Shown here: positions 3 through 39,056 of the stretch, piece by piece
How the letters are laid out: the number at the start of each line of letters is the position of its first letter
Numbering within the stretch: the first letter of the stretch is position 1
Assembly (NCBI GenBank): GCA_037308085.1
Contig: CP147779.1
Location: 1,536,001 to 1,600,000, forward strand
Length of the DNA: 64,000 bases
Source: Promethearchaeati archaeon SRVP18_Atabeyarchaeia-1
GTDB lineage: Archaea; Asgardarchaeota; Atabeyarchaeia; Atabeyarchaeales; Atabeyarchaeaceae
Direction of reading: 5' to 3'
Made by a program: the position numbers and the translations under genes
Notes under the pieces: model-generated
Database searches by the model: none
What the model was told of the DNA's origin: nothing
What the model saw: the letters and a program-made list of their open reading frames with translations, nothing else

Positions 3-851
3 AAGGATCTTCAGGCGGCCAGATGCCTTCTGAAGGAGAAGTTGTACGCTCAAGCAGTTTTCTACTTACAGCAGAGCGTTGAGAAAGCTGTTAAATCACT
101 TGGAATATGGGACGGGAAGATCACTGAGGTTGAAGCTAGGAGCGAAATTGGGCACAAAACAATCAGAATCTACTTCAGGATATTTGGCGAAACAAAAGAC
201 AAACTGATAGCCTTTGAAAAGGCGCTCCTCATGTTCCCTGATCTTAGGAAGCTAGCTTTCTTGGACGTATCCCAAGTGGCCAGATTGAAGCGTGGGATAG
301 ATGCGTTTCGAAAGGAATTTTCTGACGAGAACGTCGCATTGAGAATCTCTTCCTCGGAGCGCGACCTGCAGGACTTCCTGAGAAAGCTCCGGACGCTGAA
401 AGAAGAGTTGGGCAACGAGCTAACAAGAATAGATAAGGAGTTTAAGGAGCTGTCAGCGAACGAGAAGAAAAGCGGGGATTTCAAGAGTAAGCTGAGCCAA
501 GTACTTGAAGTTGGTTCTCAAATCAGGCCAATTATGGCAGAAGGAAGCACGATCGAGGATGTGGTTGACAAGTCAGTCTCGCCTGAGTTCATTATGATTC
601 TCATTGGTATCTCTAAGTCAATGATCCGACTTAGTTTCTGTTATCAGTCCTTACTCTACTCCTGTCTTATTCTCTATCCGCACGCTGCCAGAACAAGATA
701 TCCTGGAGACGATTTCAATCCAACGGATTTCTATAATGCAAGAGCACCGCTGATCCAACTCCTAGATAATTTCATAGAGTCCACCGGAGGAGTCTTGCGA
801 GAACTTGATCTGATCTACTGTGAAGCCCCTAGATTTGGGAAGAAGCGATGA
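3..851 (+). CDS. HEPN-domain protein with a long helical insertion (5' end lies outside the window)
   Basis: Frame is open from base 3 (KDLQAARCLLKEKLYAQAVFYLQQSVEKAVKS). Has the HEPN signatures QQxxEKxxK, GH and C-terminal RTRYP. Confidence 0.75.
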   Translation, partial: KDLQAARCLLKEKLYAQAVFYLQQSVEKAVKSLGIWDGKITEVEARSEIGHKTIRIYFRIFGETKDKLIAFEKALLMFPDLRKLAFLDVSQVARLKRGIDAFRKEFSDENVALRISSSERDLQDFLRKLRTLKEELGNELTRIDKEFKELSANEKKSGDFKSKLSQVLEVGSQIRPIMAEGSTIEDVVDKSVSPEFIMILIGISKSMIRLSFCYQSLLYSCLILYPHAARTRYPGDDFNPTDFYNARAPLIQLLDNFIESTGGVLRELDLIYCEAPRFGKKR

Positions 852-4611: not shown

Positions 4612-5696
4612 CTACTTAAGGAGTTTCTTGATGAGATTCGCAATCTTCTTTGCTAGGATCGGAGGAACTGCGTTGGCAGCCTGCTGGTACTGACTATTCA
4701 ATGTCCCCATGAATCTGAATCTATCTGGGAAGCTCTGAAGCCTCGCAGCCTCTCTGACAGAGATTATTCCATGCTGCTGCGGGTGAAGAAGCATAGCCCT
4801 TCGCGCATGAACTACCGTCGGCGAAGGCCGACGCCAGGAGAGCCTGCTGTATATACTGCTGTGAAGAGCATCTCGATTATTGAACCTTTTTTAATAGTAT
4901 CAGGCAAGATATTCCATCCTTCCTAAGGCTCTTTCCCTGACCTATCAACCGGATCGTCTCAACGACTTCATCGCTATGTTCAGTGGACCAGTGGTTGTAG
5001 AGTCTGTTAGCTCTCTTCCAAAGCGTTGCGAGATAAGGAGAACCTCTTATCTTTGGGTGGACCACATTTTCTTTCCCACCTCCGCCCCGCGGGAGTGGCA
5101 GGAGATCCTGAATTGCATCACTCACACAGGTTGCGCCTATTCGCTTCAATAACGAAAAATCAAGTTCAGCGTTATCTAGAAAGCCTGCGACAAATAGCCT
5201 CCTTCTCATCTGTGGAATCCCGAACCACTGAGCTTCCAGGCGAGCAATTGAAAGCCTGTAGCCAAGATCGTTTAGATCCTTGTCGAACGCACCCCACTTG
5301 TCCATGTTTTGAAATCTGACAACGTTTTCGAAAAGAAACCCCTTAGGTCTGATCTCTTTGACCAGCCTTACAAAATGGGAAACCGAGGAAGCAGACGGGT
5401 GATTGCCTCTACAAGGATACATGTTCGCAGGCGAATAGGGCCTGACATGGAGGGACCCCAATCACGAATACTCTTTCGAAACCCATACGAGATGCTATGT
5501 CAAGAAGTTCTCGACCATGAACATCCTCTACATCTCCCAGCACCTGCACTTTACGGAAGTTGCGCTGATATGTCTTAGCTGAGTCAGGATCCTTTTCGAT
5601 AGCAGCGACTATCTTAAAACCGGCTTCCCTGAACCCTAGATTTAGCCCGCCTGCACCTGCGAACGAATCTATGACCCCTATATCCTTTGAAAGCAT
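4612..5696 (-). pseudogene. DNA (cytosine-5) methyltransferase pseudogene, paralogue of 16845..17954
   Basis: Motif I DSFAGAGG, PPCQ/PYSPAN, FENV and REAARLQSFPD..NAVPP are split over three reading frames (at least two frameshifts). Confidence 0.9.
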
Positions 5697-6023
5697 TATC
5701 CTACCTCTAGTACACGACCCCTTCGCTCGAAGCAAGATAATCCTTGATCCAATTCACAACTGTCGTTTCGCAGGCGGGACCGGTCGTCTAAACCAGTTTC
5801 TTTGAGGAATTACGGTCTCTAACGCTTCACAAAATCTCAGAGGCAAGCCACACGCTAGCTTGTATGGTTATGCCCTCATGCATCTCGCTTGATTGCTTCT
5901 GTTCTAGGGATAGTCATAGGCAACGAGGTATAAGATTCTATCTTATGGTGTGGAAAGGGCTGATTGAGTAGAGCTGTAGACACACGTTAATCATGTATGA
6001 ACGGAAGGTCCACGCTTTTCCTA

Positions 6024-8951
6024 TCACTCCTTTGATTGAATCGAACTGAGCAACAAGCTGGCCTTTCTCCTTATCTCCTGGTCGGTGTCAAGAGCCAACC
6101 TGTTCAATATTATTCTCGCAAAATCTCTATCGATCTTCGACAAAGTGTTTGAGATCAGTTCGATCGCCATTAGTCTTGTTGAGGTCTCTGCGTTACCCGA
6201 TAGACTTTCAAGAATGAACTGTAGAGAAGGCTGGAGACTATCAAGCGTATTCTTTACGTTTTCTGGAAGTCTGCCGAAATTCTGTGCGATGGCAAGCGCC
6301 ACCCCCAATACTGTCTTATTTCCCTGGGAGAGCCTGAGAAAGAATTCTCTCTGGGTTTGAGAAAGCTTATCGTAGCATGCTGCTAATACTGATGACGCGA
6401 CCCACCCGCTCTGATCTTTTTCCATTAGTCCCAGTAACAGCTGATCCATGACAGTCTGACTAAAACTGTCAAAATTGATGGTTAAGATCGATGTGACAAA
6501 CGGCTTGGTCTCCCATCTAGTTGCAAGTTTCACTAGCAGTTCTTCCCTGATATCTCTAGGGAGGATATCAAAAGCCATCTCTACGCGTAATGCCAAATGA
6601 ACGACCGTTTCAGTTCTTTCTGCCAACTTCAGTAACAACGATTTCCTATTCTTCGCGGGAAGCACGGGGAACATAAAGGTATCGTACACCAGGCTGGTCA
6701 CTACGTCTTTTGCCGTTTCATCTTTTTCCAGAAGTTTATCTAGTAGTAGGTTCCCATCTGCCTCGGTAAACTTATCAAAATGCGTTATTATCGGAACCGA
6801 TGCCATCTCTCTAATCGATTCATCTTTTTCGAGGAGCTTAAGCAATAGTGCTTTCCTATCATTCTCAGGAAACTTATCAAAGTTATAGTTTATTCCAGAT
6901 ACAAGCTGTATTGCACCTTCACACGTCTCTGAGGACTTGAAAAGCAGGCGTCTAACTTGCGTTGGAAGTCTGTCATAGTATGCCGCTACAGCAGGTACTA
7001 CTCTTCTTGCTGTTTCTTTCGTCTCCGCGATCTTGAATAGCAAGTTTCTAGCTCTTTTCGGAAGTTTATCATAATTAGCTGCGACCGCCAGCGCCACAAA
7101 TCCTGCCTCGTCTCTTCTTGCTGCAAGCTTGAACAACAGAACCTTGACTCTGCTGGGAATTAGGCGGTAGCGGGACGTGAGAAATGGGGCTAACACAAAG
7201 GCTATCCCTTTTCTTTTCGAGAGTCTGAGGAGTGACTCGCTTATAACATTCTCAGGAAGTTGCTTGAGATAGGACATGACGAAGAATATTATATGCACTG
7301 CAGCTTCATCTTTTTCCGAAAGTCTTAGTACTACCTTGCTAACGATCTCTTTGTTTATCCGTGTAAATTGACCTCTGTTTACCAGAAGATGAGTCATTGC
7401 TTCACCATAAGATGGATGAGAGAACATTACCGTTCCATCCTTAATATGGATCTTATCATTCTTGAACCAGTTGAGAACCTCGTCAAAAGTCTGCCAGTTT
7501 CTTATCCTCAGATCATGAACAAGCCTTACATACTCTCTTCTTACAAGCCCTACTGGCAGATGTGAGACAAAGGCGAATGATAGAAACAGGATCTTGTCGT
7601 CGCTCATGTCTCCAATTTCTCTCGCGAAACTCCTTTCGGTTTCTTCGGATTTCCGCATGATCTCTTTCTTCAGTTCTTCTTCTCTTTCCACATTGACTGT
7701 AGAAGTGACGAATTCTCTGATGCTCAATGGCGTAGGCAAGATACGTTCTTTATTCAAGTTTTCCAAGATCAGATCTTTCAGTCTGTCATCTTTGAGCCAT
7801 TTGCAGCCTTTCGCCTCAGCCCACTTGAGAAGAATTTCTCTCCTCTTTTCATAGTTGTAAGAAGGCTTTCTTATGCTCAGCTTCTTCTCGAATTGTTCAA
7901 ATTCCAGTGAAGAAACTTGTTCTCTTCTGAACTGCTTGAACGCCTCTTCTCTTGAGGTTATTATTACATATGCATCTTTGACATTGCGAATCTCCACTGT
8001 TATCGTTCCGATAACCCTTTCCAGATTCTCTCTGCGCTCATATTGGGTTTGCCCAAAAGGGTCCTCAAAATAAATAATGCGATGTGGTCTTAACTCTCTG
8101 GCTATTTCCTCTAATCTTGTCCTAACTTCTTCTCGTTCCCTCTCTTCTCTTCCAGGTATCCATATCGGTTCGTATCCTTTGCTGAAATACTCCCAAAGCA
8201 ACCTTATCGCTGTATATGTTTTTCCGTACTCCTTGGTGCCAGATAGGAAGAGGATTCCGTTTCTCTTGAGAACTTCCTTTATTTCCTCGTATTCCAAGGG
8301 AGGAACATACAAATCGTCAATCCTATCATACCACGCGCTACCAGGAATCCCGATCCTTTGGAGGAACTGAAAAACTCTACCTCTCCGTAGAATCTCACTG
8401 ATCTCAGCAATGAAGAAATCAATGGTCTCGCCCTTCTGACCCTCTCGTTTGATTCTCTGGCATCTTCTCCTATCTAGGGGGTCTAATTCATTATATGCCG
8501 ACTCCGTAAGGACGACGAAAGTTGCCCGTGGTCCTTCATTATCATTGCCATGTGTGCTTCTGTACCATGCGTGATAATAACCGATTACAGCGTTCTTCTT
8601 GTTCTTGAGACCTGCGACTAGTTCATTCGTAAGCGGGAAAAATCTTGATCCCACAAGCTCGGGTAATTCCTCAACTACTATTGCAATCTCAAGCTGCAAG
8701 TTAAGGACTAAGAGTTCACCTATGCCTACGAAGACTTTCCAGAGGTCGCTGAAAACGAGTAGCCATTGGTCAAGTTGAAACGGTTCATATTTCATTAGAG
8801 TACCATTGTCACACAGATTACGTAGCCTGCCTTCAATGAGATGCGTCCAAGCGTCCCTGACATACTCCGCGGGTCTCATAAGTATCTCCGCTTCTTTCTC
8901 AGCACCCTTTTCAAATCCTAGTATGTCAATAATCACAATGAAGTGCTTCAT
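6024..8951 (-). CDS. STAND-type (nSTAND3-like) NTPase with N-terminal nucleotidyl-cyclase-like domain and C-terminal HEAT/ARM repeats
   Basis: N-terminal IIDILGF and LDQW acidic motifs; Walker A GTKEYGKT; Walker B IIYFEDPFG; about 35-aa repeats of the type (F/Y)DKLP..R..LL.KL. Confidence 0.75.
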   Translation of the reverse strand: MKHFIVIIDILGFEKGAEKEAEILMRPAEYVRDAWTHLIEGRLRNLCDNGTLMKYEPFQLDQWLLVFSDLWKVFVGIGELLVLNLQLEIAIVVEELPELVGSRFFPLTNELVAGLKNKKNAVIGYYHAWYRSTHGNDNEGPRATFVVLTESAYNELDPLDRRRCQRIKREGQKGETIDFFIAEISEILRRGRVFQFLQRIGIPGSAWYDRIDDLYVPPLEYEEIKEVLKRNGILFLSGTKEYGKTYTAIRLLWEYFSKGYEPIWIPGREEREREEVRTRLEEIARELRPHRIIYFEDPFGQTQYERRENLERVIGTITVEIRNVKDAYVIITSREEAFKQFRREQVSSLEFEQFEKKLSIRKPSYNYEKRREILLKWAEAKGCKWLKDDRLKDLILENLNKERILPTPLSIREFVTSTVNVEREEELKKEIMRKSEETERSFAREIGDMSDDKILFLSFAFVSHLPVGLVRREYVRLVHDLRIRNWQTFDEVLNWFKNDKIHIKDGTVMFSHPSYGEAMTHLLVNRGQFTRINKEIVSKVVLRLSEKDEAAVHIIFFVMSYLKQLPENVISESLLRLSKRKGIAFVLAPFLTSRYRLIPSRVKVLLFKLAARRDEAGFVALAVAANYDKLPKRARNLLFKIAETKETARRVVPAVAAYYDRLPTQVRRLLFKSSETCEGAIQLVSGINYNFDKFPENDRKALLLKLLEKDESIREMASVPIITHFDKFTEADGNLLLDKLLEKDETAKDVVTSLVYDTFMFPVLPAKNRKSLLLKLAERTETVVHLALRVEMAFDILPRDIREELLVKLATRWETKPFVTSILTINFDSFSQTVMDQLLLGLMEKDQSGWVASSVLAACYDKLSQTQREFFLRLSQGNKTVLGVALAIAQNFGRLPENVKNTLDSLQPSLQFILESLSGNAETSTRLMAIELISNTLSKIDRDFARIILNRLALDTDQEIRRKASLLLSSIQSKE

Positions 8952-10297: not shown

Positions 10298-11338
10298 TTG
10301 AGATACATCATAGACATTCCTAGATGGCTGGACGTGAAGATCAAAGCAATATTGGCAGATGAGGGATCAGATTATTCCAGCATCGGGGAATTCATCGTAG
10401 TCGCATGCGAGAACCAAATCAGGATTGAAGCCGAGGACACTGAAGTCGGCTCAATCGAGCCCGTGGCTACGGAGAAGAATGTTCCCAGGAAAGAAAAGCT
10501 AGAACACTTGTTGAGTTCTGATATCTCAGCAGTCTCCACGGTGAATAGTCCAAGTCCAGACAAGGTCGACGCTATTCTGCTATGGGGGCAAGTTAACAGG
10601 ATCTTTCCAATCAAACTGGGCACACGTGTTTTAGCCAACTCTCTCAAAGATATGGGCGCTGGATTAATGAATCTGGAGGATTTTAGAAACAAAGCTACGA
10701 GAATTGCCAGGGAATTCGGTCTGAAATTAAGAATTCTCGACAAGAGGAAAATGCGCAAACCCGGCGAGAAGTTATCAACAGGTCTGCCTGCAGGTAGCAA
10801 GGCAGAGCTTTCAATGAACCGCTACAAGGCGCACTACTTAGCGTACCAGACTGGAAAGGGAACTCTCTCGGGAGCACTTGCTGACCTGCGCCTCGCAAAC
10901 ATCGAAGGCGACAACATTGGCATAACTGAAAAAGGACTAGAGTTTGCAAAGTTAAGCAACCCTCTCCTAGATTCCAAAGAAGCCAATTTGACCATGCCCC
11001 TATCAGGGGGGGAGATCAAATGCTTTCTTTCTCTAGTCAGTGAATTCCTTCCAGACGAACATGCGTTCATGAACACTGTGCTCGGAATGATTGAGTCCGG
11101 AGAGCCTCCAAGGGAAGTGTTCAATTCAAGGGTCAAGGGATTTCTCGAGAAAGTTTGGAAGAGAGAGATAACAAACGCGGTGGCAAATACAATGAGATCG
11201 GGAGTATTGAGTAGGATGTGGGAGCTTAAGCTTGTTGAATGTAGACATGTTGGAAAGACCGTTGTATACTCGGCAGTCAGAGGAAGCGGAGGGGAACTCG
11301 GTGGCGCGAAGGAAGAGGTTTCCAGCAATAAGATTTGA
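10298..11338 (+). CDS. DNA-binding protein: N-terminal RHH-like plus winged-helix domains
   Basis: YIIDIP..LD..I......YSSIGEFIVVACENQI (RHH pattern); IGITEKG and LSRMWELKLVE..YS (wHTH wings). Confidence 0.7.
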   Translation: MRYIIDIPRWLDVKIKAILADEGSDYSSIGEFIVVACENQIRIEAEDTEVGSIEPVATEKNVPRKEKLEHLLSSDISAVSTVNSPSPDKVDAILLWGQVNRIFPIKLGTRVLANSLKDMGAGLMNLEDFRNKATRIAREFGLKLRILDKRKMRKPGEKLSTGLPAGSKAELSMNRYKAHYLAYQTGKGTLSGALADLRLANIEGDNIGITEKGLEFAKLSNPLLDSKEANLTMPLSGGEIKCFLSLVSEFLPDEHAFMNTVLGMIESGEPPREVFNSRVKGFLEKVWKREITNAVANTMRSGVLSRMWELKLVECRHVGKTVVYSAVRGSGGELGGAKEEVSSNKI

Positions 11339-11350
11339 GGTGAGTGTAAG

Positions 11351-13729
11351 ATGAGCGAATCCGGCGTGATGAAGTCTCCTCCGGTAAATTGGTCCAGCTT
11401 CCTAGAACAGGTTAGGCGGGACTACGAAACGCCGCCTGCAAAGGGTGTGGCTCACGGCCTTCAAAAGGACGCGATCCAGAACGGCTGGGGAGCTCGAGTC
11501 ACAGAAAAAGGACATGGATGGTCACTTGCCTTCGTGCTAATTGCTTCCCCCGATGGAAGGCTCTTTCTAACCGCCACCGACGCAGGCACAACTGGATTGA
11601 CAGGCAAAGTCTATGACAATGCGAGAGACCAATTGCCCGATGCGTTTCCACCAACTGAAAGACTCGCTCGTTTTGAATGCATGTTTGACTCTGGCGGCAA
11701 TGTGGGACCAGGTCTTTTCGGACGCGGTAAGCTCATTTTCAACTGTTCCTCGAAAGAGAACCTAATATACTATGACAGTCTGACGAAAGATGGTAGCTAT
11801 CGGTTCGGTAAGCGGCACATTTTAGGCCGCGATTGCCTGCAGTATGAAAGAGTGTTCGAGAACTACGAGGCTCGCGAGAAACTGAAGGAGCTTACTGGTG
11901 GGATTATCCCAGCACTTGAGCAGCCCGGCACGCGTATTATTATTGTGAATCCTGTCCAAGATGTTCTCGAAGCTATTCACAGTGGAGTTTTCCTTCAGGC
12001 AATCGAAGAGACTTGGTGGGAAATCATTCTCAAGTACAACGCGGATATCTCTGTGACGGACGAACACCTTGGCATCTCTCGAGCGCAACTCCCAAAGGAG
12101 TTTGATGGTCTTCCTGAGAAAGACGCGAATGGCTGGCGAGTTTATTATAGGACAAACGAAATTGTCCAAGTAGGAGATCAGGAGCTTCGCATCAAGCACC
12201 TTCATTTTCTGCTCCCACCTGCTGGACACACTCTTCGCGAGGACCTGCTTGGTATTAGCGTTCACAGGCGAGGAATGAAAATCGGTCCGCTTCAGTTGAG
12301 CGGGATCCCTGATGAGATCAGTGATCGGTTTTTTGGATATGTCCAGCTAATGCCAAACTTCGAAGATCTTCTAGCAGAAGCTGAGAACACGGTTCACTAC
12401 GGTTTTGCCGGGCACAAGTACAAGCCGGTCTACCGTGGTCTCAAGAAAACGGTTCAAGACCACTTGGAGATCTTCATGCAACAACTCGGCTATCGGAAAC
12501 CCGGCGGTGACCCGGACTTGCAAGCGAAGCAATTGATGGAAGAAGCCCAAGCTGACCTTAACAGCATCCTTAATGGTATGGGCATTCCTAGTCTCGGAAC
12601 CGGAACCGAAAGGGAGTCGGGGATTTTCCTTTCAGTGGAGGGTTTGATTTTTCCACGCGAAACCAACTATCTCACGATCGGAGATGAAATCTCCGGGTTC
12701 TGGTACTTGATAAGGAATACATCAGATAGCCCACAATCCATTCGCTTTGAGGTCTTCACAAATGAAAGAGATGCTGGCAGAATTGAACCACTAATTGAAC
12801 AGAAACTAATAACAGTCGGAAGCAAAAAGGAGTTCAAGACTGATAAGCTGAAGATCGCTATTACTGAGCATAAGTATAGAAGGAACACAAAGGTGGGTTG
12901 CACAGCTCTCATTACTGACCGGAATGGAAAGACCGAAAGAAAGACCTTTTTTTTCTACATTGACTTGCAGCCTCCAGAAGAAGAGGAGAACCTTGCAACC
13001 ATCAAATTGAAGTCAGCTGAATGGCCCCGGAAGAACTCCCGAAGAGTTGACTATAACCAATCTGTCCGCAACCTGACTTATGAGGTTGAAAACAACACGG
13101 CGCTTAACATGCGGATGGAACAGAAGATTAAGACGCTGTGGACTGCCGAAAAAGAACCGATCGTGGATATCTTGAGAGAGAACGACGAACTAGGTCCATA
13201 TGAAGCAAGACTTCTCAGGGTGGACCAGATAACGATGTCTCGTGAGCAGTACCAGGATGTTCTCCGCGGGACGATTACTTTGCGGTGCCACGCCATTGCA
13301 CTTGAGACAACCAAACTTTGGGAGAAAGGACATCGTCTGGCAGAGCATAACATCAATTTCTATTTGAATATGGATCCTTCATATGGCTTCTTTGAAGAGC
13401 CTGAGTACTTTGATGGAGGGCCTAATAAGCCCCGCTCGGAGACGCAACCACTTGAAGGATCTCGGTCATGGCGTTTGCGTATTAACAGGACTCATCCGGC
13501 CTATCTTGTGGCTAGGACCAATGAGTTGCATCATAAGAACTATCTTTTTGAGGAAATGGCGCGGCAGACGGTTTGCGTCCTTATTCGTACGAATCAACGT
13601 GACCCAATTAGAAAGCTGGCTGAGCTACATGGCGAGGAAGTCGACCAGATGGAAGCCGAAGATGTTGTTCAGAATGTGGCATACTGCATAACGGACAGGA
13701 TCCTTGCTAAATACTACGAGGGGTATTGA
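11351..13729 (+). CDS. GHKL (MORC/MutL/sacsin-like) ATPase with C-terminal beta-rich (Ig-like) domains
   Basis: N-box KDAIQNGWGA, G1 DAGTTG, G2 GLFGRGK, G3 PGTRI; ENTVH motif; beta-strand-rich C-terminal half. Confidence 0.75.
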   Translation: MSESGVMKSPPVNWSSFLEQVRRDYETPPAKGVAHGLQKDAIQNGWGARVTEKGHGWSLAFVLIASPDGRLFLTATDAGTTGLTGKVYDNARDQLPDAFPPTERLARFECMFDSGGNVGPGLFGRGKLIFNCSSKENLIYYDSLTKDGSYRFGKRHILGRDCLQYERVFENYEAREKLKELTGGIIPALEQPGTRIIIVNPVQDVLEAIHSGVFLQAIEETWWEIILKYNADISVTDEHLGISRAQLPKEFDGLPEKDANGWRVYYRTNEIVQVGDQELRIKHLHFLLPPAGHTLREDLLGISVHRRGMKIGPLQLSGIPDEISDRFFGYVQLMPNFEDLLAEAENTVHYGFAGHKYKPVYRGLKKTVQDHLEIFMQQLGYRKPGGDPDLQAKQLMEEAQADLNSILNGMGIPSLGTGTERESGIFLSVEGLIFPRETNYLTIGDEISGFWYLIRNTSDSPQSIRFEVFTNERDAGRIEPLIEQKLITVGSKKEFKTDKLKIAITEHKYRRNTKVGCTALITDRNGKTERKTFFFYIDLQPPEEEENLATIKLKSAEWPRKNSRRVDYNQSVRNLTYEVENNTALNMRMEQKIKTLWTAEKEPIVDILRENDELGPYEARLLRVDQITMSREQYQDVLRGTITLRCHAIALETTKLWEKGHRLAEHNINFYLNMDPSYGFFEEPEYFDGGPNKPRSETQPLEGSRSWRLRINRTHPAYLVARTNELHHKNYLFEEMARQTVCVLIRTNQRDPIRKLAELHGEEVDQMEAEDVVQNVAYCITDRILAKYYEGY

Positions 13730-13730
13730 C

Positions 13731-14399
13731 ATGGATTTTGCAATAGTAACAGAGAAGTATCCGGGAGGAAATATCAAAACTCTGAGATCGACAGTAAATC
13801 CGATTACTCCTGAGCTCGAACAACGTGCGCTCAGGCTTGATTCCTATCTTGGTAGTAGGATTCCTGCAATTGAGAAAGAGCTTATTGATGCTGGGTTGTT
13901 GGACGAGAAGATCCCAAAAGAAGGAAGCTTCAAGAATCAAGGTAATATATCACTCTGGCATGCCCTCGGATTAAGACTGTCCGCGCTTTGTGACAAGGAA
14001 GGTGTGACTAGTGTTCGAGAGCGGCGCTGGCTCTGGGAGGCGATCGAGAAAATCTATGCGACTGAGCGAATCAAACGAATTGGACGGGGGCGTACCAGGC
14101 GCCACTTCGAGTACTGTTACCAGGTTTCCAGGTATCCGATTGAATTCGCAGACCAGTTGAATTGGGCAGAATGGGTCTATTTTTTTGACTCGCGCACTGT
14201 GAGAGAAGAAACGCGGGTGCACGTATGGCTTATGACCCGTGTGAAAAAAGGCGAGAAAATTGATCGATCCACTTTTCGCGTTTTCACGCAACATCTCAAT
14301 AGGCGGCTCCGCAAACTCGACACTTCGGTTCTCAACAACGAGGAACTATTCGCGATATATGATAGAATATGGCAAGGTGTCAAGACCCCTGGGGAATAA
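13731..14399 (+). CDS. Hypothetical protein resembling the DUF1016/YhcG N-terminal domain, with no nuclease domain seen
   Basis: LWHALG...GRGRTRRHFEYCY..SRYP....QLNWAEW pattern; starts 1 bp after the ATPase stop codon. Confidence 0.55.
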   Translation: MDFAIVTEKYPGGNIKTLRSTVNPITPELEQRALRLDSYLGSRIPAIEKELIDAGLLDEKIPKEGSFKNQGNISLWHALGLRLSALCDKEGVTSVRERRWLWEAIEKIYATERIKRIGRGRTRRHFEYCYQVSRYPIEFADQLNWAEWVYFFDSRTVREETRVHVWLMTRVKKGEKIDRSTFRVFTQHLNRRLRKLDTSVLNNEELFAIYDRIWQGVKTPGE

Positions 14400-16844: not shown

Positions 16845-17954
16845 TCACAGAACGCCTCCTCCTCTACCATCCAACAACCTCCTGATCAAGTGCGCGACCG
16901 CCTCTGCCACGAGCGGAGGGACCGCGTTAGCAACTTGTTGATATTGATCATTCAGCGAACCCATGAACCTAAACCGGTCTGGAAAGCCCTGGAGCCTTGC
17001 AGCCTCTCTGACAGAAAGTATCCTATGTTGCCCAGGATGAAGAAGCATGGCTCTGCGCGCGTGGACTATGGTTGGAGAAGCCCGCCACCTGCACAGCCTG
17101 CGGTAGATGTTACTGTGAAGAGCCTCAAGATTGGAATATCTCCCTTTAATATCCTCAGGTAAGCGCTTCCATGACCTCCGAAGACTCTCTCCTTGCTTTA
17201 TCAAGCGTATCGTGTCGACGACTTCACTACTGTGCACGGTGGAACGATGGTTGTAGAGCTTGGTAGCTCCTTCTAGAAGTCTCTCCACATAGAGGGATCC
17301 ATTCTTCATTGGGTGGACTGCATCATCCTTACCTCCTCCGCCCTCGGGTAGCCGTGGCAAGCCGCAAATCGCCTCTCCGACATGAGTCGGCTCACGATGT
17401 CCCAATAGTGAAAAATCAAACTTAACCCCATTCTTAAAGCCCGCAACAAAAAGTCTTCTTCTTATTTGCGGCACCCCAAACGTCCGCGCGTCGAGATGAG
17501 AAAACGAAAGCGTGTAACCAACATTGCTGAGAGCATTGACAAACGTCTCCCAGGTATTCATGCGCTGAAACCTCACGACATTCTCAAAGAGAAAGCCCTC
17601 AGGCTTGGTCTCTTGAACTATCCTAACAAAATGTGACACCGAGGAAGCGCAGGGGTGTCGATCACCATTGTTCTTGTGCGTATTTGCAGGCGAATACGGC
17701 TGACAGGGAGGCCCACCAACCAGAAACAATCTGTCAAATCCTGCACTAGCCGAGATGTCGACAAGGTCGGCACCATGAACATTCTCTGCATCTCCAAGTA
17801 GACGTACTTCAGGGAAATTGAGCTTGTAAGTCTGAGCGGAAGGAACATCTCGCTCCACAGCAGCAACTATTCTGAATCCAGCTTCCCTGAAGCCTAAACT
17901 AAGCCCGCCGGGACCTGCGAACAGATCTGTGATTGCGACATCTTCGTAAGGCAT
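16845..17954 (-). CDS. dcm: DNA (cytosine-5) methyltransferase
   Basis: DLFAGPGG, GGPPCQ, FENV, PQIRRR, REAARLQGFPD, NAVPP. Confidence 0.95.
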   Translation of the reverse strand: MPYEDVAITDLFAGPGGLSLGFREAGFRIVAAVERDVPSAQTYKLNFPEVRLLGDAENVHGADLVDISASAGFDRLFLVGGPPCQPYSPANTHKNNGDRHPCASSVSHFVRIVQETKPEGFLFENVVRFQRMNTWETFVNALSNVGYTLSFSHLDARTFGVPQIRRRLFVAGFKNGVKFDFSLLGHREPTHVGEAICGLPRLPEGGGGKDDAVHPMKNGSLYVERLLEGATKLYNHRSTVHSSEVVDTIRLIKQGESLRRSWKRLPEDIKGRYSNLEALHSNIYRRLCRWRASPTIVHARRAMLLHPGQHRILSVREAARLQGFPDRFRFMGSLNDQYQQVANAVPPLVAEAVAHLIRRLLDGRGGGVL

Positions 17955-18257
17955 CACGCCGCCCCCCGCACACAAATTAAAGGGCATTCGCTGTGGTGAA
18001 GAGACCCGAACGTGAATTGAACCAATATCCACTAGTCAATGCCAAGCACTTGAAATGACTTCCCCCCGTAATGCATCGAATCCCTGACCACACTGAGCGA
18101 TAGTGGCACAAACGACCCGCCGAGAATTGATTATGGCGTTGCCTTGCCAAGTTTGTGCCAATCATGTCTGTACCACATTCATTTATGAGTAGCGGAGTAT
18201 AAAACTCTAGCTCTTTCTTCAGATGCAGGGACAATGTAAGACTGCTCTCCCAACATT

Positions 18258-19547
18258 CTATTTCTCTACCTGATTCTCTTCGCTATGTTTGTCTTCCCTA
18301 TGTGTCAGACCGATCACTGTCTTCAACGCCTTCTCCAAATCTTCGATCCTCTTCTCCATGTTCTGAATGGCATAAGCCTGAGTGTCGTTTCTGACTCTGA
18401 GCTCTAATACTTCCTCCTTATCTTCAGACTTGACTGCTACTCCGAGTCTCTTATTCATGCTTTCCAAAGCATTTGTCCTGCCAGCCAGGTCGGAGACTAT
18501 ACCCAGTAGTTTCTGATTCTCTTCTCTGATCTCCGCAACATTATCTTTGAGACCGTTACCGTTGCCATTACTGATCGAAAGATAAGGCTCATACTTTAGG
18601 TATTGTTGTTTGACCTCTTCCGACTGATTCTCCCTGTATGCTTTCCCAAGGCTGCCGATAGCATGACCTAACCAGAATTCTATGATCGAATCATTGCATC
18701 CATTCTCCGCCAATATCTTGGAGAAACTTGATCTGAGTGCATGTGGAGTGACATCACTGATCGGCTCATCGCCTTTGATCAATCCTGATCTCTTCGCAAC
18801 ATCTCTGACCATTACTTCCACTGCGCTCCGACTCAGCGGCTCAAAGACCTGGCCCTTTCGACCGTACTCCTTAAAGAATAATGGATCGCTTTTTCTCAAT
18901 TCAATGCCCTGGGCATTCTTCAGGTCTTCAAGGTATGTTTTCAGCGCTGATACTGCGTCGAAACCCAGATACGTGTTGAACCGTGTGTGGGTCTTCTTGC
19001 GAAGTAGATCAAGTCTCAAAGGATGCTCGCTCTCTTCCAGGCCTCTGGCGACATCTCCGTAGGTCAATCCTGTAAGAGTGGAGACATCGATCCCACTCTG
19101 ATACATCACCAAGATCACGGCCCTGTCCCGAATCGACAAGCAGTGATCAAGCATTTTCCTAACGTCTTTGGGAACGAGTTTTCTGCGCCTGAACTTTATC
19201 TCACTGTCTCCCAGATTCATTCTCACTCTCACGTCAAACGTAGCGTAAAAGCTGCGGATCGCCATCACTGCCGACCTAGACGACTCTTCGGTATGATTCT
19301 TCTTCATGTGATTAAGAAACCCTATCAGTGATATTGACACAACATCTCTTCGCTCTCTAACATCCATTCTCTGATCCTCAATCGCTTCGTCTATGACCTG
19401 TCTGGGAGTCTTCTTGATGTATTCGAGATACTGCCTTAGTCTAAGCAGGTAGTTTCGGCGTGTGCGCTCTTTCGATTGCTTCATTATCCACCTGCTAACA
19501 TAAGCGTCCTTCAGTAGTTGCTCATTTACCCCTGTTTCAACCGTCAA
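18258..19547 (-). CDS. Tyrosine recombinase/integrase with C-terminal coiled coil
   Basis: RDRAVIL..SG, RKKT, HALR, WLGH, AY; N-terminal SAM-like region. Confidence 0.9.
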   Translation of the reverse strand: MTVETGVNEQLLKDAYVSRWIMKQSKERTRRNYLLRLRQYLEYIKKTPRQVIDEAIEDQRMDVRERRDVVSISLIGFLNHMKKNHTEESSRSAVMAIRSFYATFDVRVRMNLGDSEIKFRRRKLVPKDVRKMLDHCLSIRDRAVILVMYQSGIDVSTLTGLTYGDVARGLEESEHPLRLDLLRKKTHTRFNTYLGFDAVSALKTYLEDLKNAQGIELRKSDPLFFKEYGRKGQVFEPLSRSAVEVMVRDVAKRSGLIKGDEPISDVTPHALRSSFSKILAENGCNDSIIEFWLGHAIGSLGKAYRENQSEEVKQQYLKYEPYLSISNGNGNGLKDNVAEIREENQKLLGIVSDLAGRTNALESMNKRLGVAVKSEDKEEVLELRVRNDTQAYAIQNMEKRIEDLEKALKTVIGLTHREDKHSEENQVEK

Positions 19548-19772: not shown

Positions 19773-21341
19773 AGCTGTTCGGATGGACTGTATAAATAGA
19801 TGCAACTACATGTAGGTGAATGTGGAACGGCTATGCTCTTCCAGGGAAGCGCCCTTAGTTGCTTGGGTGCCTGCGTCAAGGTCATGCAGGGCGGGGACAG
19901 AGCAGGCAGGAGCCCTGCGAGAAGCCACAAGGACCGAGAAATTACGAGGCGAATAGGAAGCTTCTCCAATCAGTCAAGGAGGCGGGACTATCAGCACCGC
20001 AGTTGCAGCAGCAGATCCAGGGAAGCATCATAGGTGGAAAACTAGAGAAGGCGAAAAGAGGACCATCGCAGTAGAGTACCAGCCATCCAGTAGCATGCTC
20101 AAATACCTTGAAGATATGAAGGACGCATTAGTGGCGTTTCTCGCCCAGGCATACGCCTCAGCCAAGATAAGCGGCCGCCTCTTGATCCCCAACCCGGTTG
20201 CGCTGAGGAGGAGGGTGAAGCCTTGGTTCGACACCCGCTATGAGTATGCGAGGCACCACGTCAATCCTCTCTGCAGGACGGCCGTGGCGCTCCTACGGTC
20301 GTACAGGAAGAGGCATGGGAGACTCGCCATGCCCCAGGTCAGGAGGCTAGCCATGAGGATCGACTCCGAGCTCTTCCGCCTCACACTGAACCCCGGCGGA
20401 AGCGTGACCGTCAGGGTCACCCTGAAGCCTTTCACCTACGAGTATATCACCTTCATTCCAGGTCACAAGAAGTGGAGCGAGTACAGCGCTGCAGGGGAGG
20501 CGTGCGAGATCCTGTTGACGGACAGGAAACTCTGCGTCACCTTCGCCCTAGGGCGTAGTAGCGGGAAGCCCCTGGCTGCGAGGCTGGCTGGTTTGGACCT
20601 CAACTTTCACAGCGCAGACTCCTCAGCGTTCAGCAGCGGTAGCATGGGGCTGGAGTCACCTCACACCAACTCCCTTAACAGGGTGGTGCAGGTTCAGAAC
20701 GACTTCTCGAGGAGGCGGAGGCGCATCCAACTGCACGTCAGGAACCCGGGGAAGAGAGAGAGGAAGCTTGAGGAGACGAGGGGCAGACAGAGAGACAGGG
20801 TTAAGGATGCGCTCCACAAGCTGTCAACCAGGATCGTCCGAGAGAACCCTGGCACATCATTCATCTTCGAGGACTTGAAGGGCATTAGGCAGGGAAGACG
20901 AAGAGGCCGGCATGATCGGGCAGGCGGTAGGAGGCTGAGGACGTACCTGAACCGCTGGCCCTACAGAGCCTTCCAGAGCATGGTGGAGTACAAGAGCCGG
21001 TGCAGGACGCTGTACGTTAGCCCGAGGGGGACCTCATCGAAGTGTCCCGTCTGCGGTGGAAAACTTGAGCACCCAGCTTGGGCAATAAGCAGATGCAGAA
21101 CATGCGGCGTGGACTACGACCGGGACAGGCTCGCCTCCCTGGCGATACTCCAGCGCGGTCTGCGCCTATGCGGCCAACCGTTTGCCGTGAGTGCGGCTGC
21201 CTCTTGGCAGCAGATGAGGAGTGAATACCTGTACACCCCCGGAGTGCCCAAGGCCGGGGGAGCAGGCGGGACCAAGCATGCTGCCAACGCACCGAATAGA
21301 AGTGCGGCCAACCTCCACGAATTTCCACATTTCTAGAAACG
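19773..21341 (+). mobile_element. IS607-like element with internally deleted tnpA and intact tnpB
   Basis: TnpA relics (VERLCSSREA / LGACVKVMQGGDRAGR HTH-like, then RSH); periodic T(T/C)TCCAC-type repeats at the right end; GAAACG at both junctions. Confidence 0.65.
20095..21336 (+). CDS. tnpB: TnpB RNA-guided nuclease
   Basis: RuvC-I GLDLN, RuvC-II FEDL, Zn finger CPVC..CRTC, RuvC-III DRD. Confidence 0.92.
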   Translation: MLKYLEDMKDALVAFLAQAYASAKISGRLLIPNPVALRRRVKPWFDTRYEYARHHVNPLCRTAVALLRSYRKRHGRLAMPQVRRLAMRIDSELFRLTLNPGGSVTVRVTLKPFTYEYITFIPGHKKWSEYSAAGEACEILLTDRKLCVTFALGRSSGKPLAARLAGLDLNFHSADSSAFSSGSMGLESPHTNSLNRVVQVQNDFSRRRRRIQLHVRNPGKRERKLEETRGRQRDRVKDALHKLSTRIVRENPGTSFIFEDLKGIRQGRRRGRHDRAGGRRLRTYLNRWPYRAFQSMVEYKSRCRTLYVSPRGTSSKCPVCGGKLEHPAWAISRCRTCGVDYDRDRLASLAILQRGLRLCGQPFAVSAAASWQQMRSEYLYTPGVPKAGGAGGTKHAANAPNRSAANLHEFPHF

Positions 21342-33026: not shown

Positions 33027-34478
33027 CTAAAGTTTCAGTCCCGCTGCTGTGCGCTTGCCAAGCTCGGAATCAGCTTTCGCTAGGTTAGCCATCATACGCT
33101 GCTGAATCTGCTTGTTCGCCTTTCCAAGGGAATCGACTATGTTGTCAACTAGATGGTCCTGATCCACCTTGCTAAGCGAACGGTAGCGCTCGCCAGCCTG
33201 CTGGAAATCATTGGTCAGAGAGATCTTCTTTCGCACGATGTCTCCCTCTAGATGAGGGTGACTCACGATGATGCTTGGTGTCTCATGGGGCATTCCATCA
33301 GCCAGCGTATTGGGCTCATAGTTGACAGTGCCTCCACCATACGGCGCATATTGCATGAAGCCATCACGCTGGTTGTTGCTGACTGGTACTTTCGGTTGGT
33401 TCACTGGAATCTGTAGATAGTTGGGGCCTAGCCTGTGCCGCTGTGTGTCCGCGTAGCTGAAGACTCTGCCTTGCAGGAGTTTGTCGGCTGAGAGTTCTAC
33501 TCCTGGGACGATTGAGGCTGGGCAGAAAGCAGCTTGTTCTGTTTCGGCGAAGAAATTCTCTGGGTTGCGATCCAGTACCATCTTGCCAACTGGAATCAGT
33601 GGGAACTTGTTCTCTGGCCATGTCTTCGTAGGATCGAGTGGATCGAATTCCTGCTTCAATTCATCAGGGATTTCCATAGTTTGGACGTTCAATTCGTATT
33701 CCACGGTCTTCCCAGACGCGATTGTGTCGTATAGGTCACGTGTTGCGATGTCTGGGTCTTCCCCCGCGAAACGGGTTGACTCGTGGCGGTCGATCGTCTC
33801 TATCCCAGCCATCGGCTTCCAATGATACTTGACGTAGATAGCCTTGCCTTCCGCGTTCACCCACTTGTAGGTGTTTACGCCGAATCCTTCCATTTTTCTG
33901 TAGCTCTTGACCGTTCCTCGATCGGAGAATAGCCAAGTGATCATGTGGGTCGACTCGGGTGTCAAAGAGATGAAATCCCAGAAGCGGCTGTTCGCTGACG
34001 AGCTGGTCGGTATGCCCGTGTCAGGTGCAGGCTTGAAGGCATGTACCATGTCAGGGAACTTGATAGCGTCTCGAATGAAGAACACTGGCAGATTATTGCC
34101 TACTATATCATAGTTTCCATCTTCGGTGTAGAACTTGACTGCAAAACCCCTAGGATCACGGGCGGTATCGGCTGATCCCCGTGAACCCACCACAGTGGAG
34201 AAACGAACGAAGACCGGTGTCTTCTTCTTCGGGTCCTGAAGGAATTTCGCGCAGGTGTACTTCGCCATACTCTTGTAGACTTGGAAGTAGCCGTGAGCAC
34301 CGGCACCCTTGGCGTGCACGACACGCTCCGGAATGCGCTCACGGTCGAAGTGCGCAAGTTTCTCAATCAAGTGCACATCTTGCAGTAAGACGGGACCTCG
34401 CTCGCCAACTGTGAGTGAATTCTGGTTGTCGCTGACGGGAACCCCTTGATTTGTGGTCAGTTGCTTGTCTTTCGCCAT
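33027..34478 (-). CDS. katA: Monofunctional heme catalase
   Basis: FDRERIPERVVHAKG, VRFSTV, RVFSYADTQ. Confidence 0.96.
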   Translation of the reverse strand: MAKDKQLTTNQGVPVSDNQNSLTVGERGPVLLQDVHLIEKLAHFDRERIPERVVHAKGAGAHGYFQVYKSMAKYTCAKFLQDPKKKTPVFVRFSTVVGSRGSADTARDPRGFAVKFYTEDGNYDIVGNNLPVFFIRDAIKFPDMVHAFKPAPDTGIPTSSSANSRFWDFISLTPESTHMITWLFSDRGTVKSYRKMEGFGVNTYKWVNAEGKAIYVKYHWKPMAGIETIDRHESTRFAGEDPDIATRDLYDTIASGKTVEYELNVQTMEIPDELKQEFDPLDPTKTWPENKFPLIPVGKMVLDRNPENFFAETEQAAFCPASIVPGVELSADKLLQGRVFSYADTQRHRLGPNYLQIPVNQPKVPVSNNQRDGFMQYAPYGGGTVNYEPNTLADGMPHETPSIIVSHPHLEGDIVRKKISLTNDFQQAGERYRSLSKVDQDHLVDNIVDSLGKANKQIQQRMMANLAKADSELGKRTAAGLKL

Positions 34479-34536
34479 TACTGATATCCTCCTCTCATAC
34501 ATTATCCTTGCACAAGGGTATGTACGGAAGGCTATT

Positions 34537-37330: not shown

Positions 37331-37726
37331 ATGCCAAGAGGTTATCAAAAGACATCCACAACTATTTACCTGATGAACTACCACTTCGTGTGGAGCCCAA
37401 GATACAGGAGAAAACTGCTGGTCGGGAAGGTCGCCAAGAGGCTGGAGCACTTAATATACGAAAAGGCGAAACAACTGGAGTGCCGAGTTATCCAGCTAGG
37501 AATCATGCCTGACCATGTGCACCTCTTCATAGAGAGCAACCCGAGGATATCCCCAAACCGGGTCATAGGAGAGATGAAAGGCTACACATCACGGGTTCTG
37601 AGGCACGAGTTCCCAGAGCTGCTGAGGATGCCGACTCTATGGACAAGAAGCTACTTCGCCAGCACGGCAGAAAACGTAAGCTCAAAGATAATAGAGGAGT
37701 ACATTGAGGCTCAGAAAGGAGCTTGA
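37331..37726 (+). CDS. tnpA: IS200/IS605 Y1 (HUH) transposase
   Basis: YHFVW.P.YR, DHVHL, LW.RSYF, YI..Q. Confidence 0.95.
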   Translation: MPRGYQKTSTTIYLMNYHFVWSPRYRRKLLVGKVAKRLEHLIYEKAKQLECRVIQLGIMPDHVHLFIESNPRISPNRVIGEMKGYTSRVLRHEFPELLRMPTLWTRSYFASTAENVSSKIIEEYIEAQKGA

Positions 37727-37730
37727 AACC

Positions 37731-39056
37731 ATGCAGGTTACCAAGACCGTCAGGATACCTGTGCACTACTCAATAACGAGGCATAAGCTAGGCATCATAG
37801 ACAAGCTGACGGCCAGGTTGACTTGCGGGGTAGACTTGTGGTCACGGCTGATCGAGGAATACGGCATTAAAGAGAGGGGTAAGCTCAGAAGCCGCGCTTT
37901 TGAGGCTCAGGTGAAGGAGAGAACTGGTCTTGGGGCTGGTCTAGTCCAGTGCTGCGGGGATACTGCCCTCTGGATGTGGCGAAGCTACAGGGAGCTGCAT
38001 AGAGCCTGGGCGGAAGCAGTGGAGATGGCTGGGAGACGAAAGGAGTGGGAATGGCATGGGAAGCTCCTAAGGAGAGAACCCAGGAAACCGCTCACTAGCG
38101 GTCTCAGTCACAAGGTCCCAATCTGGTTCGACTACCGCGTAGGCAAGCTGGAGCACGCCAAGAGTATCAGGATCGCAAGTCACGTTATCCGCGTAGCTAC
38201 GCTGCGGAAAGGTGAATGGGTCACAATTCCGCTTAATGCTGCCCCTTATCATGCTAAGCTGCTTGAGCTGGGGACAGCCAAGAGCTTCCAAATCGTGAAG
38301 AAAGACTCCAAGTACTATGTCCATGTCAAGATTGATTATGACGTGCCGGATAGGCCTGTTGCGGGCGTTCTGGGCGTGGATCTGGGGGTTAAGCGCCAGG
38401 CGGCAACCGTGTTGCTGATCGGCGAGAAGCCCCGAATCACTCCACGGTCCTTCACGACAATCCGGGATGGAGAGAAGAGGCACCGCCTTGACAGGCTGAA
38501 CAGGCTTGTCTCCGACCTGCAGCAAGCAGGGAAGTACGATGCCCTGAGGCGGCTAAGGCACAAAAGGAAGCGCGTCGCAGAGCACTTCGACCGTGTATCC
38601 GCTGTGACGCTCGCCGACATGTCTGAGGGATGTCTCCTCGTCGTCGGCTACCCGAAGGGCATAAAATACAGGAGCTACAGGGGCAACGGCAAGAGAAAGC
38701 TGCGGAAGGCGCTGACGCGCTGGAGCTACGGCCGCATCATGCGGTTCACGGTGGAGGAGAGGGCTGAGAGAGGTCTTCCGACGTTGGTCGTTGATGAGCG
38801 GTGGACCTCCAGGACGTGCTGGAAGTGTGGCTCAAGGCAGACCCTCCGCTTGAACCAGTCGACCCTCTTCTGCCGGTGCTGTGGTATGACTTTCAACGCT
38901 GACTACAACGGTGCGTTGAACATCGGCCTGCCTTACTTGGCTAATGCCGCGGGTCGAGGGGCTGCAGATGAGCCAGCCCAGGAAACCGGGGATGAACAGG
39001 CAAGAGAAATAGTAGCCTGCAAGCCCGGAAGCCAACACCCTTCAAGGGGTTGGTAG
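37731..39056 (+). CDS. tnpB: TnpB with rearranged RuvC-II
   Basis: GVDLG; VVGYP at the canonical Glu position; DERWTS; CWKC..CRCC; NADYNGA.NI. Confidence 0.9.
   Translation: MQVTKTVRIPVHYSITRHKLGIIDKLTARLTCGVDLWSRLIEEYGIKERGKLRSRAFEAQVKERTGLGAGLVQCCGDTALWMWRSYRELHRAWAEAVEMAGRRKEWEWHGKLLRREPRKPLTSGLSHKVPIWFDYRVGKLEHAKSIRIASHVIRVATLRKGEWVTIPLNAAPYHAKLLELGTAKSFQIVKKDSKYYVHVKIDYDVPDRPVAGVLGVDLGVKRQAATVLLIGEKPRITPRSFTTIRDGEKRHRLDRLNRLVSDLQQAGKYDALRRLRHKRKRVAEHFDRVSAVTLADMSEGCLLVVGYPKGIKYRSYRGNGKRKLRKALTRWSYGRIMRFTVEERAERGLPTLVVDERWTSRTCWKCGSRQTLRLNQSTLFCRCCGMTFNADYNGALNIGLPYLANAAGRGAADEPAQETGDEQAREIVACKPGSQHPSRGW

Follow-up and report, generated by a model that had tools for sequence, protein, structure and literature searches.

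Receptors of the STAND/NLR type are an immune design common to all domains of life, and the outputs known for the prokaryotic ones are nucleases, SIR2, TIR, proteases, and pore-formers. The gene described here lies at positions 6024–8951, on the minus strand, of a stretch of 64,000 nucleotides (nt) from the Promethearchaeati archaeon SRVP18_Atabeyarchaeia-1 (contig CP147779.1, positions 1,536,001–1,600,000; the whole stretch is called the window below). Its predicted product combines a cyclase-fold head, an nSTAND3 NTPase, and a tail of HEAT-like repeats. The nearest characterised system is Avs5 (AVAST type 5), built as SIR2, nSTAND3, and repeats (PMC11897194); the NTPase of PaAvs5 is reported to be PF20720 (bioRxiv 10.1101/2025.07.08.663546). 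The present protein shares with Avs5 (EfAvs5, PDB 9jap; PaAvs5) the PF20720 NTPase, the order of effector, nucleotide-binding and oligomerisation domain (NOD), and helical repeats, and the single-gene format; EfAvs5 is also a Foldseek match of the full-length model (E 3.7e-5). It differs from Avs5 in the head, a cyclase-type palm domain instead of SIR2; in the repeats, 32-residue HEAT-like units instead of TPR, Sel1, or PPR; and in the hosts of its family, which are mainly anaerobic archaea.

The other described relatives resemble the protein through its head. Class III cyclases (PF00211), including Pycsar PycC (PDB 7r65, 8jsf, 8jsz), have in common with it the fold and the strand order (Z 10–12 over about 150–160 aligned residues), a strand 1 that closes with the Asp of a DIxGF-type motif, another Asp in the strand 2/3 hairpin, and an xIGxxTG-like strand 4. 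Unlike them, the head shows no detectable sequence or profile similarity, neither the Asn/Arg transition-state pair nor the Lys/Asp base-specifying pair, and, in contrast to Pycsar, there is no adjacent effector gene beside the present gene. Bacterial cyclase–STAND regulators (class III cyclase, AAA_16, and TPR), of which mycobacterial Rv0386-type proteins are an example, likewise carry a cyclase domain N-terminal to a STAND NTPase; however, theirs is a canonical, Pfam-detectable cyclase, the NTPase is of the AAA_16/MalT type, and the proteins are regarded as signalling regulators, not as mobile single-gene defence. A large family of canonical class III cyclases also exists in which zinc ribbons and AAA_16 STAND modules are attached to the cyclase (e.g., L012:1321–2010); it is seen in Heimdallarchaeota, Chloroflexi, Anaerolineales, and Planctomycetes and can serve as a contrast to the diverged head.

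Effector domains of the cyclic nucleoside monophosphate (cNMP) cyclase type are described in two papers on NTP-dependent conflict systems, for VMAP/vWA-MoxR ternary systems and for iSTAND2 (Kaur et al. 2020, 2021; PMC7159879, PMC8195603). A cyclase domain as the output of an NTPase-gated system was already proposed there, and the present protein resembles such systems in this respect; unlike it, they consist of several genes, rely on other NTPase clades, and carry cNMP cyclase domains that can be recognised as such. A cyclase on nSTAND3 is not mentioned in either main text, and no published description of the head clade was found, the 2026 STAND survey of 90 families (PMC13581612) being covered in its main text. 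The novelty is that an nSTAND3 clade with its centre in anaerobic archaea has, as its constant head, a cyclase-fold domain that has diverged strongly and that the databases do not recognise. With a confidence slightly above even, we read the gene as a self-contained single-gene NLR/Avs-like immune sensor, in which oligomerisation would switch on a cyclase-like nucleotidyl transferase. The putative antiviral role is drawn from the architecture and the genomic context, by analogy with described receptors.

Overall architecture of the protein

The gene is a single intact open reading frame (ORF) of 975 amino acids (aa), uninterrupted from the ATG at 8951, with a Shine–Dalgarno-like GGTGGT box 6 nt upstream, to the stop codon at 6024–6026. 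The full-length AlphaFold2 (AF2) model (pLDDT 87.3) has three parts: the N-terminal head, a central NOD with helical and winged-helix parts, and the C-terminal repeats. In Foldseek, this model first matches the PP2A PR65 HEAT scaffold; its NOD part then matches SAMD9, EfAvs5 (9jap), NLRP9, NOD2, and Avs3. The modelled layout is that of sensor, switch, and output, as in bacterial antiviral STAND proteins and in animal and plant NLR receptors. An earlier note, made from the DNA letters alone, had proposed a tripartite protein with an nSTAND3-type NTPase and a FEDPFG Walker B; the single ORF, the Pfam assignment, and the models agree with this, and the motifs that it quoted are all present (IIDILGF, aa 7–13; QLDQW, aa 59–63; IIYFEDPFG, aa 292–300).

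The nucleotide-binding domain (aa 215–376; 7824–8309, minus strand) is the sole Pfam domain of the protein: nSTAND3 (PF20720) matches with E 2.2e-20 and 73.4 bits, against a cut-off of 27.2, over model positions 1–151 of 155. Both Walker motifs are intact, Walker A being GTKEYGKT (aa 238–245; 8217–8240) and Walker B lying within IIYFEDPFG (IIYFED, aa 292–297; 8061–8078). Gly238, Lys244, Thr245, Glu296, Asp297, and Arg334 are invariant in 57 homologues. The helical and winged-helix-like part of the NOD follows (aa 377–530; 7362–7823, minus strand), with helices at 384–480, a helix at 489–496, and a hairpin of strands 501–504 and 507–510 in the full-length model.

From aa 531 to the C-terminal end, the model is all-helical. 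This sensor-like solenoid (aa 531–975; 6027–7361, minus strand) contains about 11 two-helix repeats of 32–33 aa, counted by eye and clearest at aa 565–930; BLOSUM autocorrelation gives z 8.8 and 6.3 at periods 32 and 33, respectively, compared with shuffles, and harmonics appear at 65 and 97. In the relatives, the repeat is very regular, with the consensus LPExVRNxLLxKLSEKDxxAxxVAxxVAxNFxK, and members range from 610 to 1416 aa because the copy number varies across the family. The earlier note had named the tail a long HEAT-repeat tail. The helical solenoid and a Foldseek match to the PP2A PR65 HEAT scaffold (prob 1.0, target TM 0.39–0.45) are on its side; however, no Pfam HEAT model matches the tail, and its period of 32–33 aa is below the usual HEAT period of about 39 aa, so that "HEAT-like, short period" seems a fairly accurate wording for what is modelled.

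The libraries of known defence systems respond weakly and at the P-loop. PADLOC, which the earlier note had named as a check, gave PDC-S73 as its sole match (weak, E 1e-7, over the P-loop region), and NCBIfam gave only DS8_antiphage, with 18.7 bits against a cut-off of 790, likewise over the P-loop. No PADLOC or NCBIfam model of a named Avs type recognises the protein; therefore, no named defence family in those libraries fits it.

Fold and conserved residues of the head

The N-terminal head (aa 1–212; 8316–8951, minus strand) is predicted to be a palm domain resembling the class III cyclase homology domain, from a sequence family not described before. It has no Pfam match at E ≤ 10 and no true PDB sequence match, either by phmmer or with a profile of 90 heads; the only PDB matches in these sequence searches were designed helical repeats, rejected because they reflect the low complexity of helices 1 and 2. 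When 1.84 billion representatives were searched exhaustively with HMMER, 132 clusters contained the domain, and the AF2 model of the head was built on their alignment. The model is confident (pLDDT 92.9, pTM 0.89), and its elements follow in the order strand, two helices, strand hairpin, helix, strand, long helix, three more strands, and helix.

In Foldseek against the PDB, every match listed for the head (to rank 50) is a class III adenylyl or guanylyl cyclase (prob 1.0, E 3e-5 to 4e-4). VIA, a structure search independent of Foldseek, similarly has class III cyclases in its top 16 places, including Pycsar cCMP/cUMP cyclases (Z 12.0–10.1, about 150–160 residues aligned). The cyclase domain of Rv1900c (1ybt) shows Z 12.0 (rmsd 3.3, 156 residues aligned), a eukaryotic guanylate cyclase Z 11.7, and the mammalian adenylyl cyclase C1 domain Z 11.6; Pycsar cUMP/cCMP cyclases have Z 9.8–10.3, the Cas10 palm Z 10.0, GGDEF Z ≤ 9.6 with fewer residues aligned, a class III cyclase-like ATP-binding protein of P. 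aeruginosa (PDB 6yii) Z 9.4, and mCpol Z 7.8. A fold search in BFVD returned nothing beyond generic proteins of the cyclase or GGDEF kind. These models support well a palm fold of the class III cyclase type, as the earlier note had suggested for this domain; the head would resemble a palm-fold nucleotidyl transferase, nearest in shape to class III cyclases, but should not be classed under PF00211.

Palm-fold cyclases hold two metal-binding aspartates, one at the end of strand 1 and one in the strand 2/3 hairpin, and the class III cyclase family carries the motif FxDIxGFT. Six polar residues are conserved in 204 full-length heads, namely Asp9 (98%), Arg32 (97%), Asp61 (97%), Glu88 (95%), Lys116 (91%), and Tyr126 (94%), and all six occur together in 161 of the 204 and also in the present protein. 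Asp9 (codon 8925–8927, minus strand) belongs to the DILGF motif at the end of strand 1 (aa 2–10), in the same place as CDIKGS in the canonical cyclase from L012, and is the first predicted metal-binding Asp. The second, Asp61 (codon 8769–8771, minus strand), lies in the turn between strands 54–59 and 62–67, where the L012 cyclase has MGDA. Glu88 (codon 8688–8690, minus strand), at the start of strand 4, is a family-specific third acidic residue; the family consensus here is PLEIAIGTG, compared with RVGINTG in the L012 cyclase. By topology, Asp9, Asp61, and Glu88 should cluster: in a four-stranded antiparallel palm sheet of order 4-1-3-2, strand 1 ends at the same edge at which strands 2 and 3 turn and strand 4 begins. 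The conservation of Asp9 and Asp61 is not due to chance; they sit where cyclases hold their metal aspartates, as the earlier note had proposed, and would bind metal there.

Several observations weigh against a cyclase-like activity of the head. PF00211 matches neither the head at E ≤ 10 nor anything else in its genome, and hhalign of the head family with 120 canonical cyclase domains gives a probability of 0.2%, a weak negative as the cyclase set, collected from a Heimdallarchaeota seed, is narrow (Neff 2.8). Helix 4 (aa 106–128) has no conserved Asn or Arg column, only Lys116 and Tyr126 being conserved in it; no Lys is conserved four residues before Asp61, where Tyr, Ile, or Pro is found; and, in a residue register taken from motifs, Glu88 aligns with, and stands in place of, the conserved strand-4 Arg of class III cyclases (RxGxHTG). 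Of the six residues that are canonical for class III cyclases, four could not be located in the head family. The dimerisation arm of cyclases is replaced in the model by a lower-confidence loop (aa 96–108). The present copy also departs from its own family around strand 4 (P86Q, G92V, and D97P, Asp97 being 78%-conserved) and carries in helix 4 an insertion of 3 aa that is its own; it retains 17 of the 19 most conserved head columns, the family median being 18. These residues place the head outside the canonical cyclases and do not point to a particular product. Of the proposal in the earlier note that the output might be nucleotide-signal synthesis or NTP depletion, the cyclase-type fold and both aspartates stand, whereas the canonical Asn/Arg are missing.

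The absent Asn/Arg and Lys/Asp residues, the change of the strand-4 Arg to Glu, and the lack of profile similarity to active cyclases would also suit a head that is past cyclase chemistry and non-enzymatic, that is, a nucleotide-binding or oligomerisation/adaptor module, the output coming from another domain or from a protein recruited in trans. PDB 6yii, among the structural matches (Z 9.4), may be a parallel, and catalytically inactive cNMP cyclase domains of conflict systems are described by Kaur et al. 2020 (PMC7159879). We consider such a head unlikely: the six polar residues, three of them acidic and at the predicted metal site, are 91–98% conserved in a family otherwise about 30–40% identical, which exceeds the needs of a scaffold. 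The domain content of the relatives bears on the same question.

Domain exchange and the candidate output

The head family, which Pfam does not see, numbers at least 132 clusters when grouped at 50% identity and at least 280 proteins when grouped at 90%. The head is present in 234 of the 237 retrieved proteins, N-terminal to nSTAND3 wherever nSTAND3 is present; in full-length relatives, Walker A follows about 240 residues downstream. About 98% of the members have no other candidate effector domain, which argues against a purely structural head. So does relative P0047, in which a trypsin-like peptidase replaces the head, as is expected of an effector slot with interchangeable effectors.

Five relatives point the other way. 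An Mrr-type restriction-endonuclease (PD-(D/E)xK) domain stands in front of the head in P0136, P0171, P0051, P0018, and P0021 (the last truncated). Pfam Mrr models match the first three, and the extensions of P0018 and P0021 are 67–73% identical to those of P0051 and P0171. These metagenomic proteins, with Mrr, head, nSTAND3, and repeats in this order, reach about 1400 aa. In them, the head need not be the killing module and may possibly be regulatory, which speaks for a non-catalytic head and counts against the reading that we favour. A restriction endonuclease beside a cNMP cyclase in conflict systems, noted in PMC7159879, parallels these fusions. The Mrr additions show that a minority of the family uses a nuclease output; the view of the earlier note, an output other than DNA cleavage, does not fit the family as a whole, given the five members that add a nuclease.

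Two apparent standalone heads were rejected: P0138 is a decayed copy whose downstream gene has no P-loop part, and in P0190 the gene has been split or frameshifted, its nSTAND3 gene coming next. A decayed copy at L023:6001–8014 consists of a 213-aa head gene and then a 447-aa gene that aligns from STAND residue 337, the P-loop part being deleted; its neighbour is an Eco57I-like methylase, and the intact copy in G002 (L021) likewise lies beside one.

As for the mechanism, analogy with Avs and NLR proteins suggests that the C-terminal solenoid of 32-aa HEAT-like repeats would bind a protein of a virus or another mobile element, and that the nSTAND3 NTPase, once released, would bind ATP and oligomerise. 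Oligomerisation would then join the cyclase-fold heads, whose two-metal site (Asp9 and Asp61, with Glu88, Arg32, Lys116, and Tyr126), as the fold and the conservation indicate, may act on nucleoside triphosphates. Class III cyclase domains must dimerise to be active, since their active site forms at the interface; induced proximity would therefore be a natural on-switch for such a head. The output, the weakest step, would be direct, again by analogy with Avs and NLR proteins: massive NTP consumption, or a toxic nucleotide product, would lead to growth arrest.

A direct output is favoured over a dedicated second messenger because there is no conserved partner gene, and because no CAP-type cNMP-binding domain and no Csx1 HEPN domain were found in the 97%-complete genome of the host. 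Among 115 neighbour ORFs from 14 further loci, no family is common to more than two; the genes of about 280 aa upstream of the STAND gene in G002 and L023, considered as a common partner, are mutually unrelated. A direct effect, by NTP consumption or a toxic product, is more likely than a second messenger with a dedicated receptor.

The palm fold itself would equally suit a diffusible signal, either a cNMP or a cyclic or linear oligonucleotide of the kind made by Cas10, mCpol, and GGDEF, with an effector encoded elsewhere in the genome: it is common to Pycsar cyclases (Z about 10), Cas10 (Z 10.0), GGDEF (Z 9.6), and mCpol (Z 7.8), and cyclase-based signalling is established in Pycsar and proposed for conflict systems (PMC7159879). 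However, no gene family recurs beside the sensor across more than 20 loci, neither of the two receptor domains named above was found in the genome, and a laterally moving single gene would require a receptor in each new host. We hold a diffusible signal to be rather improbable.

A more specific and more tentative proposal is that the head forms a new, highly diverged branch of the cyclase/palm superfamily, which NLR-like receptors would use as a module for killing or for raising an alarm. Inactive as a monomer, it might become a two-metal nucleotidyl transferase on STAND oligomerisation, with a product outside cAMP, cGMP, cCMP, and cUMP, or drain the NTP pool. If this is true, it would be a new effector chemistry in prokaryotic NLR-type immunity, mainly of methane- or alkane-oxidising and other anaerobic archaea. 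A dimerisation-dependent cyclase-fold output would suit activation by induced proximity, and would join NLR-type sensing and nucleotide chemistry in one polypeptide. The six-residue signature D-R-D-E-K-Y offers directly testable mutants.

Distribution and genomic neighbourhood

The genome (2.81 Mb, one contig) contains one head and one true nSTAND3 gene. The head is found in three of 400 genomes of the phylum and is absent from a genome of the same genus; a pattern-limited scan of 185,579 species genomes found it in 18. Archaeal hosts are Methanophagales (ANME-1), Methanobacteriota, Halobacteriota, Bathyarchaeia, Hydrothermarchaeota, Methanobacterium, and Argoarchaeum; bacterial hosts are Chloroflexi/Dehalococcoidia, Eubacteriales, and Zixibacteria. 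The family is thus mostly found in hard-to-culture anaerobic archaea (ANME-1, Argoarchaeum, Bathyarchaeia, and Hydrothermarchaeota) and co-occurring bacteria, where antiviral mechanisms are poorly known. A search of IMG/VR with one peptide pattern yielded no viral relative.

In the window, the gene lies in a stretch of lower GC content (43% compared with 48–51%). At the 5' end of the window, which leaves it open, there is a HEPN-domain gene (3–851, plus strand; Pfam HEPN E 7e-7) with a long coiled-coil-like middle. Directly downstream of the STAND gene follows a frameshifted and truncated C5 cytosine methyltransferase, a Dcm relic (4877–5735, minus strand), whose overlapping frames 5409–5735 and 4877–5461 both match PF00145; an intact Dcm gene lies at 16845–18032, and the relic has the look of a paralogue of it that has decayed. 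On the other side is a tightly packed three-gene operon (10298–14399, plus strand; 346, 792, and 231 aa) with no Pfam or PADLOC match at E ≤ 0.01. The intact Dcm gene and an HhH-GPD glycosylase gene belong to the same island and share their surroundings with a tyrosine integrase (18258–19547, minus strand). After the integrase comes a TnpB/Cas12f-like gene (20095–21336, plus strand), beyond which housekeeping genes begin; the integrase and the TnpB/Cas12f-like gene mark the right edge of the island.

The same data bear on a reading without immunity, in which the protein would be a housekeeping signalling STAND that converts an internal cue into nucleotide signalling, like the bacterial class III cyclase–AAA_16–TPR(–LuxR) regulators. 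Canonical cyclase–STAND fusions are common indeed, PF00211 occurring with PF13191 in many matches, and some loci of the family lie among ribosomal or metabolic genes. However, the presence in three of 400 genomes of the phylum, the absence from a genome of the same genus, the scatter over archaeal and bacterial phyla, the existence of decayed and split copies, the integrase-bounded island of lower GC content, and the highly variable number of repeats, with relatives of 610–1416 aa, all speak against it, and we consider a housekeeping role very unlikely.

Defence, toxin–antitoxin, or integrase genes occur at seven of the nine loci whose gene tables were read individually. Locus G002 has GmrSD, PLD, an Eco57I-like enzyme, and a HerA-like giant; locus G182 has AbiTii, RNase T, RiboL-PSP HEPN, and Schlafen; of other loci, one has HicAB and Phd, one Rep and an integrase, one PIN and an integrase fragment, and one MNT-HepT pairs and a second STAND-TPR gene. 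The 115 neighbour ORFs of the 14 further loci include type IIG, type I, and type IV restriction enzymes, a DRT reverse transcriptase, GajB-like helicases, integrases, and PIN. The remaining two of the nine (L014 and L019) show nothing defence-like, which counts against an immune role; these are counts, with no formal enrichment statistic. An association of homologues with defence islands, implied by the earlier note, may exist, such genes being seen at most of these loci but not at all of them. The gene behaves as a mobile single-gene accessory module, often, though not always, found among defence or mobile-element genes.

The HerA-like giant of G002 (L021:13938–18122, plus strand; 1394 aa) lies about 840 nt downstream of the STAND gene there, has only a weak HerA/DUF87 match, and may be another uncharacterised defence ATPase; a 153-aa ORF on the minus strand lies between the two genes. 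In the window, a second TnpB-like gene is found at 37704–39056. A full-length haem catalase is encoded at 33027–34502 on the minus strand (PF00199, E 5e-188), which would be notable if the host is strictly anaerobic, like the hosts of the STAND relatives.

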